This document shows, in pieces, positions 1-6,111 of a stretch of DNA of 6,111 bases. This DNA is from a virus (lineage: Duplodnaviria; Heunggongvirae; Uroviricota; Caudoviricetes). Below the pieces are notes generated by a model, which worked only from the letters and a program-made list of their open reading frames with translations, did no database searches and was not told the origin of the DNA. The stretch is from the IMG/VR virus record IMGVR_UViG_2609459846_000008; one strand, 5' to 3'. Each line of letters starts with the position of its first letter. Position 1 is the stretch's first letter. The translations under genes and the position numbers were made by a program.

Positions 1-275
1 AACCGCTCCGGCTTCTTCCAGTGGTAAGTAATTTTTTCTTTCTCCTGGTACATCTCCACGCGGCGACGATATGACAACAACTCCAGAACTCTGGTGCGTA
101 TATTGCGTATATCCACGCCGTTAAGCTCGATACCGTCACGGCGCATCACCTCAGCCACCACACGCGCGTAATTTTCGGCTATCACGCTGTCCGGCTGCGT
201 GGCCTCCTGTTTGCCTGCTTCCTGGCTGATTCCGGTAACGCGACGGATTATTTTTAGTAGTTCGGTTTCGCTCAT
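1..275 (-). CDS. Hypothetical protein, N-terminal 91 codons only; gene continues beyond the window start
   Basis: ATG at 275..273 lies 5 nt after the large-terminase stop (283..281). The frame stays open for 91 codons to position 3 (MSETELLKIIRRVTGISQEAGKQEATQPDSVIAENYARVVAEVMRRDGIELNGVDIRNIRTRVLELLSYRRRVEMYQEKEKITYHWKKPER...). It is absent from the ORF track only because no stop falls inside the window. I recognise no family. Confidence 0.45.
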   Translation of the reverse strand, partial: MSETELLKIIRRVTGISQEAGKQEATQPDSVIAENYARVVAEVMRRDGIELNGVDIRNIRTRVLELLSYRRRVEMYQEKEKITYHWKKPER

Positions 276-280
276 TCTCG

Positions 281-1942
281 TCATACCCCATCAAACGCCG
301 CAAGCCGCTCTTTGTGGCTGTCGCTCATATCAAATGCAAATTCCTCATGTTCTGCCTGGAATGTGCCAAACGCCATCAGAGCCGCAACGCTCGGGTCTAT
401 CTTGTTGGATGATTTTTTCTTGTTCGGCTTGATATTGGCGTTCGCGTCACTCTGCATCACAACATTACTCATTGACCAGGCCAGCACCGGATCGCCACGA
501 TGCACAATCACCTTCCGGTTAACAAAAACTTCGAACGATTTCGCCGCCGGACTGAAACGAAGGTATGTTTGCGGGAACGGCTCCACCTCAAATCCTGCCC
601 CCTGTAGCTGCGTCCTCAGGTGCGTGGCGTTCCATGTATCGAAGCCCACCAGCCTGATATTGAAATTCTCTGCATCCGCCATGATGTCATCACGGATACG
701 GTCATAATCAATGCAGTCACCCGGTGTTGTGCGTATCCAGCCCACCTTTACCCACTGGCGATAGATGGCGCGGTTTTTATTGGCGGGGGTCTGTAGCTGA
801 AATTCAGGCAGATAGTGACGGGAAACCAGCATAATCTTTTTACCGACCGGAAAGGCATAGCACACGCTGGAAATATCGCTGGTTGATGATAAGTCCAGCC
901 CCGCGTAGCACTCCTGCCCGTATAAATCCGCCTCCGCGAACGTTCCGGCGCACTCCGCCCATGCACCGTTACCCATCCACGGCGTAGCCCCCTGACACCA
1001 GATATTGAATCGCTTGGTGAGCATTTCCACCCACTGCGACGGAATACCCCGCGCTTTCTGGATGGTTGAGGCCAGTTTTTCACGATCGACGGAAACATCG
1101 ATATTGGGATTCGCCTTTATCCACATCGCCGGATCGTCAACCTCGCTTTCATCATCCAGCTCGTAAATCAGCACGAACATGGATTCGTTCACCTCTTCAC
1201 CATCCAGTATCTGGCAGCAATAGTCATAGTGTTGTTTACAGGCTGAAACAACGTTGCTCCCCGATGTGGTGATGGCAAATAACAGCCCCTCCGGACGCGC
1301 CCCCATTCCCAGTTCAAGCGCGGAATAAACCCCGTTGTCAGGGTGCAGGTGATATTCATCCACAATGGCAAGACTCGGGTTTGTACCTTCAATGGTTGCC
1401 GCTTTTGCTGCCAGTGGCTTTAACAGGCTGTTGGTTTTCGGGTGTATCACCTTGTGTGCCTGAATATTTACCCGCTTTCGTAACGGTCGGGATAAAAGGC
1501 ACATCTGACGCGCATCATCAAACACGATCCGCGCCTGATCACGACTCACGGCGGCGGTGTAAATATCCTGCTGCCCGTTTTCCATAACCAGAAACCAGTT
1601 AGCCAGGATAGCGGCGACCGTGGATTTGGCATTTTTTCGCGGCACTTCAATGAATGCGCTGGTGTATTTGCGCCGTCCGGTGGCCTTAACCTTAAAGCCC
1701 AGGATGCACGCAAAGGCGAACTGCTGCCACGGCTCCAGCTCAATGGGGCTACCGCGCATTGCGCCTTTTACGTGCGGACACACCCTGGAAAAGGCAATAA
1801 ACCGCTCCACGACCTCCGGATCGAACGTGTAAAGGGGGTTTTCAAGGTCAGAAAAATACCGTTTAACGGCCTGTTTCAGTCGTTTACAGGCCGTAATTTT
1901 GCTGTTTTTTACGCCTTCTGCGTACTCATGCCAGGCGGTCAA
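281..1942 (-). CDS. terL: Phage terminase large subunit (Terminase_1-like ATPase/nuclease)
   Basis: 553-aa ORF with a P-loop-like motif (FIEVPRKNAKST), a Walker-B-like LAIVDEYH and a long C-terminal nuclease-sized region; overall resemblance to large terminases of HK97/lambda-like phages. The start codon at 1942 is TTG (plus strand reads caa), preceded by AGAGGA 5 nt upstream. It overlaps the small-terminase stop by 17 nt. Confidence 0.88.
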   Translation of the reverse strand: MTAWHEYAEGVKNSKITACKRLKQAVKRYFSDLENPLYTFDPEVVERFIAFSRVCPHVKGAMRGSPIELEPWQQFAFACILGFKVKATGRRKYTSAFIEVPRKNAKSTVAAILANWFLVMENGQQDIYTAAVSRDQARIVFDDARQMCLLSRPLRKRVNIQAHKVIHPKTNSLLKPLAAKAATIEGTNPSLAIVDEYHLHPDNGVYSALELGMGARPEGLLFAITTSGSNVVSACKQHYDYCCQILDGEEVNESMFVLIYELDDESEVDDPAMWIKANPNIDVSVDREKLASTIQKARGIPSQWVEMLTKRFNIWCQGATPWMGNGAWAECAGTFAEADLYGQECYAGLDLSSTSDISSVCYAFPVGKKIMLVSRHYLPEFQLQTPANKNRAIYRQWVKVGWIRTTPGDCIDYDRIRDDIMADAENFNIRLVGFDTWNATHLRTQLQGAGFEVEPFPQTYLRFSPAAKSFEVFVNRKVIVHRGDPVLAWSMSNVVMQSDANANIKPNKKKSSNKIDPSVAALMAFGTFQAEHEEFAFDMSDSHKERLAAFDGV

Positions 1943-2282
1943 GCTCGTCCTCTTCCTCTGTTTCCGGTGGATTTCTGCGGCGACTTACCGGGTCAAAACC
2001 CAGCAAAGAAGCCATTTTGATCATTATTCTTTCAGCGTCAGCCTTTGCGCTCAGGGCGGGGTTTCTGCTCTCGCTGCCCTGACTGTTAACAATGCTGAAC
2101 CCGCGCGTGGCAAGGTCTTCGACGGCTTTGCGGTATATGGAGTAGTTAACGCAATACAGCTCCAGATTGCTCCAGTCGGCGGGGGTAAGGTCTTCCCGTC
2201 CGGAAAGCTGGCGCGATTTTTCCTTCCACTGCCTGACCGCGATTTCATCCAGGTAAGCGGGGGCTTTTGGTGGTCTTGCCAT
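1926..2282 (-). CDS. terS: Phage terminase small subunit, P27 family
   Basis: Translation from the internal ATG at 2282 begins MARPPKAPAYLDE... and carries the P27-family core (LTPADWSNLELYCVNYSIYRKAVEDL ... NPALSAKADAERIMIKMASLLGFDP). The ORF-track start at 2423 adds 47 residues that do not resemble TerS, so 2282 is preferred. This is shorter than a typical P27 TerS. Confidence 0.75.
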   Translation of the reverse strand: MARPPKAPAYLDEIAVRQWKEKSRQLSGREDLTPADWSNLELYCVNYSIYRKAVEDLATRGFSIVNSQGSESRNPALSAKADAERIMIKMASLLGFDPVSRRRNPPETEEEDELDRLA

Positions 2283-2570
2283 GTTCTTTTTTCGCCCAAT
2301 TATTTTCAAAAAAATTCCCGTGCACAAAAATTTGAGGAGGCGGTCGGTGTCCGGCAGGGACGGTTTCGTCCTGAAAACCACCCCCACCCCCTCTGACGGC
2401 CTCACCAGCGATTGCGAAAACATTCCATGACCTCGCGGTCACGGTCGGTTAATTGCTTCGCTGTGGTGCGTTCTGTGCGCCCTGTCCTGTTGGCTTTGTG
2501 CCCTGTCTCCTGTGTCTTCCATAAGTCACGCTGCCTTATCAGTCCACGTATCAGCCTGGTTTGCTCCTGT
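2283..2570. promoter_or_regulatory. HNH-TerS intergenic region; candidate cos / terminase-recognition region with possible promoter
   Basis: About 290 bp between the HNH stop and the preferred TerS start. Contains CTGT-rich imperfect direct repeats (2461..2516), a G-tract on the minus strand (plus ccacccccacccc, 2379..2391), a small hairpin (ggacg-gttt-cgtcc, 2358..2371) and an AT-rich block (2286..2335). On the minus strand that block holds a possible sigma70-like pair: -35 TTGTGC (2327..2322), 17-bp spacer, -10 AATAAT (2304..2299). In HK97-like phages cos lies between the HNH and terS genes. Confidence 0.3.
2461..2516. repeat. Imperfect direct repeats built on a CTGT core
   Basis: CTGT occurs six times in 53 bp. 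Two about 17-bp copies, tgtgcgccctgtcctgt (2474..2490) and tgtgccctgtctcctgt (2497..2513), sit 23 bp apart. Confidence 0.4.
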
Positions 2571-3011
2571 TCAGTCATCATCGCCATACATCCAGTCGTT
2601 ACGGTGTGCTGCCCGTTCTTCCTGCTCGCGATACATGCCCGCCTTACGGTTCGCTTTCGTGGCTGGATCTTCCCGTGTCGTCTTACGGTTGTGGCACGTC
2701 TGGCACAATGCCTGGTGGTTCCACTCAGGCCAGAAGAGAACATCACCGCCGCCATTGATGGGGATGATGTGATCCACCACAAGAGCTGGCGTATAAATCC
2801 CCTTAGCCAGACAACGCACGCATAACGGGTTTTTGCTCAGGTACAGGGCGCGGTATTTGTCCCACTGTCGGGAATACCCGCGCGCGCGGCGGTGTCCCCG
2901 TCTGGCATCCTCTGCACGCCATACAGCCCGTCTGTGCTCTTCACACTTGCCGGACTTCACGCGCTTATTACAGCCCGGCTCAGTGCATCGCCTTAATGGT
3001 TGCCACGGCAT
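2571..3011 (-). CDS. Phage-associated HNH endonuclease
   Basis: 146-aa ORF with ATG at 3011..3009. Cys-rich N-terminus (CTEPGCNKRVKSGKCEEH) and a canonical HNH core (VVDHIIPINGGG ... NHQALCQTCHNRKT). Its start overlaps the upstream connector-gene stop (TGATG). Confidence 0.88.
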   Translation of the reverse strand: MPWQPLRRCTEPGCNKRVKSGKCEEHRRAVWRAEDARRGHRRARGYSRQWDKYRALYLSKNPLCVRCLAKGIYTPALVVDHIIPINGGGDVLFWPEWNHQALCQTCHNRKTTREDPATKANRKAGMYREQEERAAHRNDWMYGDDD

Positions 3012-3313
3012 CAGTACACCCCCACATCACGATAAACCGACCAGAGCGCAGAAATAGCCATAGGCAGTTCAGACTGCTCCACTGGTGAAACTGCTTCCCT
3101 GTTCTCGTACAGGAAAGCGATGTACATCAGGCAACCAACACGCATTGCCGGGGTAAATTCCAGCCCGTCTTCAAAACGTTTCCCGATATGCTTCTGGCAG
3201 GCTTCCAGCGCCGCATCGGTATACATTTTCAGAAGTTCGCCTTCACCGGATAAATCATCATCAAGTCGAAGATGTGCCCTGACTTCATCAGGTGTAATTC
3301 TGGCTTCACTCAT
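3011..3313 (-). CDS. gp6-like head-tail connector protein
   Basis: Translation from the ATG at 3313 (MSEARITPDEVRAHLRLDDD...FLYENREA..., about 100 aa) matches the size and the characteristic N-terminal E-x-x-R-A-H-L-R-L-D motif of HK97 gp6-like connector proteins. GGGAG Shine-Dalgarno 6-7 nt upstream. The ORF-track start at 3376 is GTG and adds 21 residues with no support. Overlaps the portal stop by 8 nt. Confidence 0.7.
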   Translation of the reverse strand: MSEARITPDEVRAHLRLDDDLSGEGELLKMYTDAALEACQKHIGKRFEDGLEFTPAMRVGCLMYIAFLYENREAVSPVEQSELPMAISALWSVYRDVGVY

Positions 3314-4520
3314 CTTTTCTCCCTTTAATTTCCACAGTCTGTTTCCATGCCTGGCTGAACTCATCACCACCTTCACGCGGCGGCATACCCTCGCGTTCGC
3401 GAGCTTCGTTCGGATTCATGATCCCGCTCTTAATCCCTTTCTCATACGTGGCATAACGTTCGGTGGGTGTGGCGCGCAGTAAATCGGCTGAATCAAACTC
3501 AACCAGATAACGGGTACCAGGTACGGGAGAAGTCACCAGCAAAGCGGCCTTGATTTGCTGTTCGAAGTTCGCCAGCCACGGGCGCATTGTCATGGTCAGA
3601 AATGCGCGGCTCGCCTCACTGAAATTGCTGTAGGTGCTGTTGCTGTATTCCTGAAGAAAAATCGGCGACACGTTGAACATCCTGGCGATGTCTTCAATGG
3701 AGAAGCGACGGGAGGCCAGCCATTCCGCATCCTGGTTACTCATCCCCAGCTGCCTGTAATCCATGCCCCCTTCAAGGATTGGCGTTTTTCCGGCATTTTT
3801 CGCCCCCTTGTAGCGTTCCAGTGCGTCTAATGCCTGTTTACCTTTCACGCCGTCCAGCCATTCACCTGACGTGATAATCCCTGCCGCCATCATGCCATCT
3901 TTCATAATGCTGGCTCCGTGACGCTGTTGAGCAAGGCCAAGCCCCAGCGCCTCACGGCAAATCGTGACGGGGGAACGCCCCAGAAAGCCATCATCCGAGG
4001 CATAGCGGAGATGCAGAACTTCTTCCTGTAAATACGTGCGCACCGTTCCTGTACAGGGTTCGGTGATGGTATAGCGGTATTTGTGTGTGCCTGTGCGTTC
4101 CGGTACAACACACCCCGGCGCATAAGGATGAAGTGATTTTGGCTGCCCGTCCCGCCCCCACTCAATAACCGCATAGGCGTTACCGTTCAGCAGGCAGTGA
4201 CGCATCATTGTGCGTTTAAACTGGTAAGGTGTCAGGCACGAATTAGGCTGCTCATTCAGCAGAATATCTACCGGGTGACTGTCCAGCCATTCCCGCGCCT
4301 CTCTGCCCTTATCATTGCGTACCAGATACAGGTAACACGGCATCGTGGCCACCGCCTCAGCGATGACAGAAACCGCGTTCATCACAGCAGGCAATGATTC
4401 AGCCGTCCCGGCAGAAACATATTCTCCGGATCCGGTATTTGGTACACCAGACAACGCCAGAAAATCATCAATGGACAGGTTACGCAGATCGCTTTTTTTA
4501 CGACTAAAAGGCCACCACAT
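3306..4520 (-). CDS. Phage portal protein, HK97 family
   Basis: About 404 aa from the ATG at 4520 (MWWPFSRK...). Carries portal hallmarks: LLNGNAYA, VLHLRYASDDGFLGRSPV, RRFSIEDIARMFNVSPIFL, RPWLANFEQ. The ORF-track start at 4610 is TTG and overlaps the protease C-terminus out of frame. Protease stop and portal start are arranged TGA-T-ATG. Confidence 0.9.
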   Translation of the reverse strand: MWWPFSRKKSDLRNLSIDDFLALSGVPNTGSGEYVSAGTAESLPAVMNAVSVIAEAVATMPCYLYLVRNDKGREAREWLDSHPVDILLNEQPNSCLTPYQFKRTMMRHCLLNGNAYAVIEWGRDGQPKSLHPYAPGCVVPERTGTHKYRYTITEPCTGTVRTYLQEEVLHLRYASDDGFLGRSPVTICREALGLGLAQQRHGASIMKDGMMAAGIITSGEWLDGVKGKQALDALERYKGAKNAGKTPILEGGMDYRQLGMSNQDAEWLASRRFSIEDIARMFNVSPIFLQEYSNSTYSNFSEASRAFLTMTMRPWLANFEQQIKAALLVTSPVPGTRYLVEFDSADLLRATPTERYATYEKGIKSGIMNPNEAREREGMPPREGGDEFSQAWKQTVEIKGRKDE

Positions 4521-4521
4521 A

Positions 4522-5082
4522 TCACAACCCCGCCAGTTCAGCCCAGCGATGACGATTATTTCCTGCCGGGCGTAATTCAGGGTACTGTGCAAACAACGAA
4601 CGGTGGGCAATCTCCACGCCGGATTCGGGATAAGCAGGCATCGATGTTATCGTGATTTCACGGAGTTCTGCTGCGGTTACAGTACGCAGATACGGTTTTT
4701 GCGCGATATTCCACTCCTCGCATAATGCGCGAAAGCCAAAGCTCATTCCTGTAATATCGCCACGTTCCACCAGCGTAAGCACATCTTTTCCAAGCTGGGT
4801 ATTTGGCGGTGTCAGTTCAAAACGTAGCCCGGTGTTATCCTCAGTCAGTACCAGTGAGCCGGATTTGGTACGCCCCAGCAGTCGGGTATAGTCATGCTCA
4901 TACAGACAGCGCACATCATTACCTGCCGCCAGATAGTCAGCAAAAGCCCCCGGCGTGAACTGTTCGCGAAACTCGTCCCAGATAATTTCTGAAAGGCTGT
5001 TCCAGCGAACGGCATAACCCACCAGTTTTTTATCGCTGGCGGTCAGTTCAGATGTACGGATTTCAAAATCGGTGTTTTTCAT
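4522..5082 (-). CDS. Prohead (head maturation) protease, HK97 family
   Basis: 186 aa from the ATG at 5082 with GGAG 8 nt upstream. Matches the HK97 protease pattern: FEIRT ... VGYAVRWN ... FTPGAF ... DVRCLYEHD ... LLGRT ... GLRFEL ... VERGDITGMSFGF ... AYPESGVEIAHRS. The ORF-track start at 5307 is TTG inside the upstream capsid gene. Confidence 0.85.
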   Translation of the reverse strand: MKNTDFEIRTSELTASDKKLVGYAVRWNSLSEIIWDEFREQFTPGAFADYLAAGNDVRCLYEHDYTRLLGRTKSGSLVLTEDNTGLRFELTPPNTQLGKDVLTLVERGDITGMSFGFRALCEEWNIAQKPYLRTVTAAELREITITSMPAYPESGVEIAHRSLFAQYPELRPAGNNRHRWAELAGL

Positions 5083-5102
5083 CGGTGTACTCCATAAAGC
5101 TG

Positions 5103-5123
5103 AAAAAGGAGGCCGAAGCCCCC
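5103..5123 (-). terminator. Rho-independent terminator candidate between capsid and protease genes
   Basis: Minus-strand RNA reads GGGGGC-UUCG-GCCUCC followed by UUUUU: a 6-bp GC-rich stem (one G-U pair), a UUCG tetraloop and a U5 tract. It starts 8 nt after the capsid stop (5134..5132) and sits about 20 nt before the protease start. Confidence 0.5.
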
Positions 5124-5131
5124 TTTGCTCA

Positions 5132-5747
5132 TTACTTGCCAGCCTGAATTTCCAGAATCTTGATGGCGTTCGAATCCACCACACCACCGCCCAGATATTT
5201 CTGGGTATAGATGTTAATGAATCCAGGCTCGCTGAAATCCGGACGGGTACGCGTACCGGTTTTATGGTCAACGATGAAATAACCGCGCTTAAAGTCACCG
5301 ACTGCAATCACACCGTCCGGCATAAATTCCAGATATTCAACCGGAAGCCCCAGCAGAGAATCAGGATCACCAGCCTGTAAACGATCGCGCCAGATGTAAT
5401 CACCAGTGGCATTTTTCAGTTTTTGTGCGGAGGCGGCTGTATTTGAGTTCATCACCCATACAGCTTTTTTGCGGTACTTATTGCGCAGCGTAAATTTCAG
5501 GTCAATCAGCATATCGGCGCTGAGACTGCCAGTCACTTTTTTCGTCTGGAGCGTACCGAAAGGACGGGTTTTGTCATTATCCGTAGTGCGCGGGAAAGTC
5601 AGGAAACCTTTGGCTTTTTTCTCGCCATCACCGGAAACCAGATCCGTTTCTTCGGTATCAACGAAAGTGTCGCCAATTTCAGAAGATAACCAGCCCATAA
5701 TATCGACTTCGGAAAAATCGATAATTTCCTGAGTGGTTTTCGGGTAA
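5132..5747 (-). pseudogene. Major capsid protein (HK97 family), C-terminal roughly 200 aa; 5' end removed by IS insertion
   Basis: The frame is open from 5761 down to the stop at 5134..5132. Motifs align to the C-terminal half of the HK97 capsid protein: LVSGDGEKKAKGF (compare LLNGDGTGDNLEGL), LLGLPVEYLEFMP (compare MWGLPVVPT), AVGDFKRGYFIVDHKTG. The upstream end runs into non-coding, repeat-rich IS terminal sequence, and a full-length capsid protein would be about 350-400 aa. The 5' boundary is approximate. Confidence 0.7.
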
Positions 5748-6111
5748 GTGCGTATTCCGCTCTATTCGATCACGGATTGGCATCGAAGTCCGATCAGCGA
5801 TTCGCATCCATTCGATCAACCGGGAACTTAACTTTTTCTACCGCTTTTTAACGCGTTTTTTCGCTGCTTTCCACTACCGGGGGATTTTTCCTCAGTGACT
5901 CTCCCTGAAGGACCACCCGGTGTGAGTTATGTACCAGTCTGTCCAGGATGGCATCTGCTGTTGTTGGGTTCTCCATCAGACCATGCCATTTATCTACCGG
6001 GAACTGACTTACCACTATCGTGCTGCTTTGTCCGTAACGATCCTCTATGAGCTCCAGAAGGTCATTACACTGGGCGTTACTTAACTGTTCCAGCCCCAGA
6101 TCGTCCAGGAT
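5748..6111 (-). mobile_element. IS21-family insertion sequence, terminal part (continues beyond window end)
   Basis: 3' end of an istB-like gene followed by about 100 bp of non-coding sequence with short iterated motifs: attcgatca (5764..5772 and 5810..5818), cgatca (x3), gatt[g/c]gcatc (5775..5785 and 5799..5809). Multiple terminal repeats are typical of IS21-family ends. The capsid frame is cut off here. The boundary is approximate (about 5730-5765), and the tg at 5748-5749 would fit the family's TG...CA ends. Confidence 0.6.
5848..6111 (-). CDS. istB: IstB-like transposition helper ATPase (IS21 family), C-terminal 87 codons
   Basis: Minus-strand translation from the window edge: ILDDLGLEQLSNAQCNDLLELIEDRYGQSSTIVVSQFPVDKWHGLMENPTTADAILDRLVHNSHRVVLQGESLRKNPPVVESSEKTR, stop at 5850..5848. 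Walker-B-like ILDDLG and the ILDRLVHNSH...GESLRK tail are characteristic of IstB/DnaC-type AAA+ proteins. Missing from the ORF track because the start lies outside the window. Confidence 0.75.
   Translation of the reverse strand: MLDDLGLEQLSNAQCNDLLELIEDRYGQSSTIVVSQFPVDKWHGLMENPTTADAILDRLVHNSHRVVLQGESLRKNPPVVESSEKTR

Follow-up and report, generated by a model that had tools for sequence, protein, structure and literature searches.

Inactivation of a mobile element's structural genes by insertion sequences (ISs) is routine. In the IS21 family, insertion is accompanied by target duplications of 4-8 bp. Members of the family carry multiple TIR repeats spaced approximately 23 bp apart and end in a terminal CA, and for IS5376 the target duplication observed in vitro is 5 bp (PMC10122671). 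Among phage satellites, EcCIEDL933 is the prototype capsid-forming PICI (cf-PICI), and its capsid is available as PDB 9GYI (bioRxiv 10.1101/2025.02.11.637232). Satellites of this group build small capsids of their own, package their own DNA only and use the tails of a helper phage. Published search criteria for cf-PICIs include a size of about 10-18 kb, an integrase with regulation and replication modules, and the absence of lysis genes and of a complete tail module. A search of the literature turned up no account that deals specifically with an IS inserted in a cf-PICI.

The window, by which we mean the whole stretch of 6,111 nt that was analysed, has all of its recognisable genes on the minus strand. 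Its features, in window positions and in the direction of transcription, are the following.

5848 to 6111, minus strand: 3' end of istB, the last 87 codons and a TAA stop; the gene runs off the window end
5749 to 5847, minus strand: right terminal non-coding region of the IS (R-TIR), 99 nt, with approximately three IstA-site-like repeats
5742 to 5748, minus strand: right-hand copy of the 7-bp target-site duplication CTTACCC, capsid codons 177-179
5132 to 5748, minus strand: 3' part of the major capsid gene, HK97-fold, residues ~178-381 of 381 (Pfam Phage_capsid)
4522 to 5082, minus strand: prohead serine protease (HK97 family), intact (Pfam Peptidase_S78, E=7.5e-45)
3306 to 4520, minus strand: portal protein, 404 aa as annotated, intact (Pfam Phage_portal, E=2e-91)
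3011 to 3313, minus strand: head-tail adaptor/connector, gp6-like, 100 aa, intact (Pfam Phage_connect_1)
2571 to 3011, minus strand: HNH endonuclease, 146 aa, intact (Pfam HNH, E=8.8e-10)
between the HNH and TerS genes, minus strand: 61-aa ORF
1926 to 2282, minus strand: TerS, P27 family, 118 aa as annotated, intact (Pfam Terminase_4, E=4.2e-23)
281 to 1942, minus strand: TerL, 553 aa, intact (Pfam TerL_ATPase and TerL_nuclease)
after terL, minus strand: start of a 94-aa ORF

Our analyses indicate that an active IS21-family IS (2,639 bp, istA-istB) has almost certainly inserted itself at codon 179 of the major capsid gene in a cf-PICI-like island of approximately 15 kb at yifB. The original prediction for this DNA was that an IS21-family element of 2-2.7 kb interrupts the capsid gene and displaces its N-terminal part, and this interpretation is supported. 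As it had described, the C-terminal ~200 residues of the capsid protein lie in an open frame (5748-5132), which matches Pfam Phage_capsid at positions 77-279 of 280 (E=7.7e-43) with the N-terminal part absent. The repeat-rich non-coding DNA described beside this frame, about 100 bp, is the 99-nt segment at 5847-5749, and the istB-like 3' end described on the same strand is a stop-free translation of 87 aa up to the TAA (6111-5848) that matches Pfam IstB_IS21 at profile positions 158-233 of 238 (E=3.3e-22). In an HK97-fold major capsid protein, a complete Phage_capsid domain follows a delta/scaffold region that the prohead protease cleaves off. With only profile positions 77-279 kept, the capsid sequence in the window is a gene fragment and not a functional HK97-fold member.

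A frameshift or sequencing error that hides the capsid N-terminus was also considered and was ruled out. The capsid frame is open from 5761 and is preceded by three stop codons, the sequence upstream is multi-copy IS at 100% identity, and no frameshift correction restores the N-terminus.

The junction was examined using window positions 6111-5100 (1,012 nt) as a megablast query against 5,426 complete E. coli genomes. A single genome, that of strain E203449 (NZ_CM128603.1; stool, Mali), matched the whole query at 100%. In many other genomes the match was confined to query positions 364-1012 and was annotated 'phage major capsid protein', and these match limits in uninterrupted capsid genes place the break exactly between 5749 and 5748. 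Up to the break the IS reads ...GGAATACGCA, and the capsid sequence resumes with CTTACCCGAAAACC. An exact-pattern scan with the 40-nt IS/capsid junction gave no match in IMG/VR viral contigs or in species-representative genome contigs. Promoters and terminators were searched for in window positions 5000-6111, and no such site was found, the IS end included.

The window is a short contig that ends inside the IS, and E203449 is the only source for istA, for the left end of the IS and for the 5' half of the capsid gene. The E203449 locus that carries the same junction (L001) is annotated by PGAP/RefSeq as follows, in positions of that locus.

9189 to 9725: capsid pseudogene, 'missing C-terminus'
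9957 to 11492: istA, 511 aa
11509 to 12264: istB, 251 aa, 'IS21-like element ISSso4 family helper ATPase IstB'
12357 to 12980: capsid pseudogene, 'missing N-terminus'

This type of event is already known, and RefSeq annotates the IS and both capsid pseudogene halves in E203449. The parts that the original prediction had proposed to look for beyond the window are all found in this locus: an istA upstream of istB, the other IS end (starting TG), a short target-site duplication and, immediately past the IS, the capsid 5' half. The IS extends over 9725-12363, a length of 2,639 bp (TGCAAAATGG...GGAATACGCA), and is flanked by CTTACCC at 9718-9724 and again at 12364-12370. This 7-bp sequence occurs once in uninterrupted capsid alleles, in the context ...CTACGCTTACCCGAAAACC.... 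The insertion point lies within codon Pro179 of the capsid gene, with a 7-bp staggered cut, which leaves a 5' fragment of 178 codons and, 2.6 kb away, a 3' fragment of ~204 codons. Both istA and istB are co-oriented with the capsid operon. The frame of the capsid 5' fragment continues into the IS for 40 codons before it meets a stop, and the resulting ORF has 218 aa.

The island that received the IS sits between two yifB fragments and is bounded by a 10-bp att core, AATAGCGGAT. Between the att cores it measures 17,679 bp with the IS and 15,033 bp without it. It encodes a tyrosine integrase (Pfam Phage_integrase, Arm-DNA-bind_3), a 62-aa AlpA-like excisionase/regulator (PHROG 2790), and Icd-like, DUF4222, D5-type primase, SSB and ProQ/FinO-like proteins. 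The packaging genes are ordered capsid (split), protease, portal, adaptor, HNH, TerS and TerL. Neither in E203449 nor in E500002 (India), which has the same island, does the annotation between the yifB fragments include tail or lysis genes. One adaptor was recognised (window 3011..3313; PHROG 40 'head-tail adaptor Ad1', E=1.8e-28) and no separate second connector gene was found in the island; the conserved 94-aa ORF after terL, which belongs to PHROG 1561, may be the second connector.

The island fits the published cf-PICI criteria in its size and its gene content and in lacking tail and lysis genes, and we call it a putative cf-PICI-like satellite, not a prophage. It is very unlikely that the host is instead a degraded prophage remnant that had lost its tail and lysis genes and was already dead when the IS struck. 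The structural genes are indeed all phage-derived, PGAP names them 'phage' proteins, and the island is known from its sequence alone. However, the island is compact between its att cores, and its organisation, with the packaging genes in satellite-type order after a primase/AlpA module, recurs unchanged in many genomes and at several att sites. Its capsid is also close to the solved EcCIEDL933 capsid: the intact allele matches PDB 9GYI with E=3.7e-184 over residues 1-377 of 381, scores 300.9 bits with TIGR01554 and covers Pfam Phage_capsid positions 1-279 at residues 101-376. Finally, the remaining genes had been described as intact; this is the case for the window genes, and PGAP annotates no pseudogene in the E203449 island beyond the split capsid.

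A related strain without the insertion had been suggested as a comparison, and E500002 provides one. At the same yifB site it carries the cf-PICI-like island with an intact 381-codon capsid ORF and one CTTACCC, and its matches to the left and right halves overlap by exactly 7 bp, the unduplicated target. When the IS and one CTTACCC were removed from the E203449 sequence in silico, a capsid ORF of 1,146 nt was obtained that has no difference from E500002 (0/1,146 nt). The capsid fragment in the window shows no difference from the corresponding 3' part of the intact 381-aa gene in E500002. Over the 15,033 bp of the island, E203449 and E500002 differ by 24 SNPs and 3 small indels. A 6.7-kb right-half query (packaging module and right flank) was matched over at least 80% of its length by 373 of the 5,426 genomes, as compared to one for the full junction.

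Eight SNPs, every one of them downstream of the capsid fragment, separate the window from E203449. Five are synonymous changes in the protease gene and three are non-synonymous changes in terL, by which the TerL proteins differ at 3 aa; the protease protein of the window is identical to those of E203449 and E500002, and its portal is without differences from E203449. Since the window differs from E203449 at these positions, the junction is common to at least two genomes. The claim that the insertion is recent was thus borne out by the lack of decay relative to the intact allele, but has to be tempered by the sharing of the junction between at least two non-identical genomes. The insertion is evolutionarily young, yet not private to one isolate.

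In E203449, the interval from allE to allC is occupied by a second cf-PICI. Its integrase is a different one, and its capsid gene is intact, with a difference of 2 aa. Its protease, portal, adaptor, HNH, TerS and TerL are identical to those of the yifB copy. Past the junction, the packaging modules of the two islands are identical for 5,368 nt, and the sole differences between these copies are four positions close to the right end. The window has yifB-type bases at all four of these diagnostic positions, as does the IS-bearing copy of E203449. The arrangement in the window (IS and yifB right end) thus agrees with that in E203449, although the 5.4-kb exact repeat leaves the copy unproven from short reads.

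An exact look-up of the TerL protein of the window led to one draft assembly, GCA_000704005.1 (JNQF01), contigs of which carry the window haplotype. Contig 83 (6,112 nt) is 100% identical to the window over the 5,748 nt past the junction, and upstream it continues as intact capsid sequence. It joins an allC-type capsid 5' part (D79) to a yifB-type right end, for which mis-phasing across the exact repeat of 5.4 kb is the simplest explanation. Contig 40 (35.7 kb) has CTTACCC as its very first bases, shows all 8 window SNPs and runs into allC-allD-fdrA-purK. The window itself is most likely a contig assembled from short reads of an ETEC strain that resembles JNQF01 and has this insertion. Judging from these contigs, the lineage of the window probably also has a second cf-PICI with an intact capsid gene.

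Features of this kind could also arise if the junction were a short-read mis-join at repeated sequence and the source genome had no insertion, which we consider highly improbable. The window does end in a multi-copy IS, and five unrelated short-read contigs begin at the same istB position, so the window ends where assemblies repeatedly break, and its boundary there has no biological meaning. In addition, related genomes have two exact copies of the 5.4 kb past the junction, and the draft contig with the exact haplotype of the window leads into an intact capsid gene while another starts at CTTACCC. Against this, the junction is short enough for a single read to cover it and has beside it the target duplication that a true transposition leaves, and the complete circular chromosome of E203449 has the identical junction together with the full IS, both of its ends and the 7-bp duplication. 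The junction is also carried by a Logan contig (L014, run SRR35329215), possibly from E203449 itself. The right-end SNPs of the window are yifB-type, in the same phase as in E203449, and a contig that starts at the junction, as in JNQF01, is a typical IS-induced contig break. Mis-phasing would alter only which copy bears the IS and not the existence of the insertion.

Within a genome, the packaging modules of the co-resident islands are identical over 5,368 nt (0 differences), whereas genomes differ from one another at 8 SNPs. This pattern suggests gene conversion between co-resident satellites, unless assembly polishing made the modules identical.

The inserted element itself was compared with the IS21 family. 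The istA product scores 283.6 bits with NCBIfam transpos_IS21 (cut-off 160) and matches Pfam rve and Mu-transpos_C_2, and the full 251-aa IstB scores 257.8 bits with IS21_help_AAA (cut-off 200) and matches Pfam IstB_IS21 with E=1e-60. The chance that the 5848-6111 product is a phage DnaC/DnaI-like loader and not part of an IS, the capsid gene having been cut by an old deletion or rearrangement, is practically nil: IstB and DnaC share an AAA+ clade and there are weak matches to the PRK08116, PRK06835 and DnaI models, but the IstB-specific model is far ahead even for the window fragment (96.6 bits with NCBIfam IS21_help_AAA, against at most ~25 bits for DnaC/DnaI-type models), the DDE transposase gene istA is directly upstream of istB, the capsid 5' half is directly on the far side of the IS, and copies of the 2,639-bp unit at 100% identity stand in many unrelated contexts, where each is bounded by a target duplication of its own.

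The termini are also those of an IS21-family element. The left end starts TG and the right end finishes CA (window 5750-5749). Within the R-TIR (5847-5749), which ends in the letters ...ACGCA, a TGATCG...GCCAA-type motif recurs every ~23 nt, and the IstA-site-like repeats lie at about 5800-5818, 5777-5795 and 5754-5772. The left end in E203449 has five ~20-nt repeats with spacings of 23, 24, 23 and 22 nt; inverted counterparts of these lie 46 nt (2 x 23) apart in the right end, with one more between them. The arms of the IS are up to 89% complementary, and a direct repeat (D4) and the inverted repeats I1, I2 and I4-I6 pair the right end with the left.

Positions 1-2639 of the unit are present at 100% identity, with different flanks, on chromosomes and plasmids of many strains, and 226 genomes have at least 80% coverage of the unit. 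In E203449, 10 chromosomal places match the IS (some of them maybe partial), and two plasmids have one full-length copy each. Three other copies that were inspected have their own 6-7-bp duplications (GTAACG, TTCAAA and GTATGCC). Full-length copies at 100% identity elsewhere, with duplications of their own, fix the boundaries of the IS independently. Every testable defining feature of the IS21 family was found, and nothing in this IS departs from the family. It is a common element of E. coli and Shigella that PGAP names ISSso4-like, and the name rests on the PGAP product label.

The event has the following consequences. Transposition of the IS21-family element, of the standard kind with a 7-bp staggered cut, duplicated CTTACCC and split the capsid gene. 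The 3' fragment is severed from the promoter, the start codon, the delta/scaffold domain and the first ~85 mature residues; in EcCIEDL933 the mature form of the capsid protein starts near residue 93, so a break at this point would take the delta domain and ~85 mature residues from the 3' fragment. Because the break falls at approximately position 77 of the 280-position Pfam capsid domain, neither fragment would be expected to form the HK97 fold, leaving the yifB copy without T=4-type procapsids of its own. In EcCIEDL933, the substitutions K290D, E319K and R345D in the C-terminal half of the capsid protein each abolish transfer, and the split capsid gene should do the same.

The insertion would also enlarge the cos-to-cos unit from 15.0 to 17.7 kb (+17.6%). 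The EcCIEDL933 capsid holds 15.5 kb (bioRxiv 10.1101/2025.02.11.637232). By analogy with the packaging limits of phage lambda, the enlarged unit would probably exceed the capacity of the small capsid, blocking packaging even in trans. We infer that, as a satellite, the yifB copy can in effect no longer move, except by generalised transduction on rare occasions. Deletion of the capsid gene in another cf-PICI, KpCIDSM30104, did not lower transfer, and transfer in that case was generalised transduction.

These considerations apply to the yifB copy. Since a second cf-PICI with an intact capsid gene is present in E203449, capsid proteins can still be made in the cell, and the capsid gene of the allC island could complement the loss in trans. 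The earlier claim that the element is unable to assemble capsids would thus hold for the yifB copy but not necessarily for the cell, which may make capsids using the second cf-PICI. It is quite unlikely, in our assessment, that the IS-bearing island persists in its ETEC lineage by riding in the capsids of its sister, as a 'satellite of a satellite', or that it is kept for a role other than transfer, such as phage interference.

The yifB copy is very probably non-autonomous, which matters for counts of functional cf-PICIs and for the use of such strains as donors. Draft contigs that end in an IS are a pitfall in that they conceal half a gene. Beyond annotation the importance of the insertion is small, and the identity of the packaging modules within a genome is biologically more interesting than the insertion.

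Compared with described elements, the IS resembles IS21, IS5376 and IS100 in its 2.6-kb length and in having istA (DDE transposase) followed by istB (AAA+ helper). With the IS21 family it shares the TG...CA ends, imperfect multi-repeat TIRs, a short duplication with no obvious target specificity, and several identical copies per genome. It differs from IS5376 in its target duplications, which are 6-7 bp as opposed to 5 bp in vitro but fall inside the 4-8 bp range of the family, and it has five left-end repeats where the minimum in the family is two.

The host island resembles EcCIEDL933 of E. coli O157:H7 EDL933 in its size of ~15 kb, its integrase, AlpA-like regulator and primase-type replication, and in encoding its own HK97-type capsid, protease, portal, adaptor, HNH, TerS and TerL without tail or lysis genes. 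The capsid proteins are closely related, though the island described here is known as a satellite solely from its sequence. Unlike EcCIEDL933, the yifB copy is split by an IS, measures 17.7 kb, is integrated at yifB and has one recognisable adaptor/connector. As in other cases of IS inactivation in prophages and satellites, part of the decay and domestication of mobile elements in general, one IS disables an essential morphogenesis gene and the remainder is intact. The difference from the usual case is that a nearly identical, intact sister element is co-resident on the chromosome, by which the phenotype may be masked.

The E203449 chromosome carries a second island resembling the capsid-forming PICIs (cf-PICIs) at its allE/allC site (L015, the locus at that site, 6670-20759), to be compared with the yifB island of the same chromosome (L001 1222-18900). 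The capsid gene of the allE/allC island is intact and its integrase is unlike that of the yifB island. The packaging modules of the two islands show no difference over the 5,368 nt that follow the IS site.

Eight SNPs relative to both E203449 island copies are common to the window and to both JNQF01 contigs (40 and 83), so that the islands are identical within each genome and different between genomes.

Window 4924, 4756, 4747, 4672, 4537, 1903, 1830 and 789 (L001 13188 to 17323): the eight SNPs versus E203449

Such a pattern is what gene conversion would be expected to produce when two satellites reside together. In the long-read assembly it could also arise from repeat homogenisation during polishing.

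Contig 40 (JNQF01000040) starts exactly at the CTTACCC target-site duplication (L007 1-12), and in contig 83 (JNQF01000083; L008 1-364) the capsid 5' part is of the allC type, with D79, but the right end is of the yifB type. Draft GCA_000704005.1, to which both contigs belong, probably mis-phases the two islands across the 5.4-kb exact repeat. The window ends at 6111, in istB codon 165, and position 1 of five unrelated short-read or metagenome contigs (L009-L013) falls at the same istB position; this common start point suggests a recurrent repeat boundary, with the upstream sequence common to related IS21-family variants.

Repeats were located at both ends of the yifB island, and the longer pair may be arm-type sites of the integrase.

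L001 1222-1231 and 18891-18900: 10-bp att core AATAGCGGAT, adjoining the 76-nt repeats
L001 1310-1385 and 18746-18821: 76-nt imperfect direct repeat (78% identity), just inside both island ends

In the early region of this island, a 1-nt indel versus E500002 at L001 4568, within a hypothetical gene (4347-4586), alters the C-terminus and length of the small encoded protein (79 aa versus 86 aa).

Two mechanical ORFs in the window are longer than their PGAP models, and two further small ORFs are conserved.

1926-2423, minus strand: TerS, 165 aa versus 118 aa in the PGAP model
3306-4610, minus strand: portal, 434 aa versus 404 aa in the PGAP model
2402-2587, minus strand: conserved 61-aa ORF (PHROG 3173), between HNH and terS
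1-275, minus strand: conserved 94-aa ORF (PHROG 1561), 3' of terL

The upstream extensions of the TerS and portal ORFs run into adjoining genes and are probably untranslated. The PHROG 1561 ORF might be the second head-tail connector listed in descriptions of cf-PICIs.
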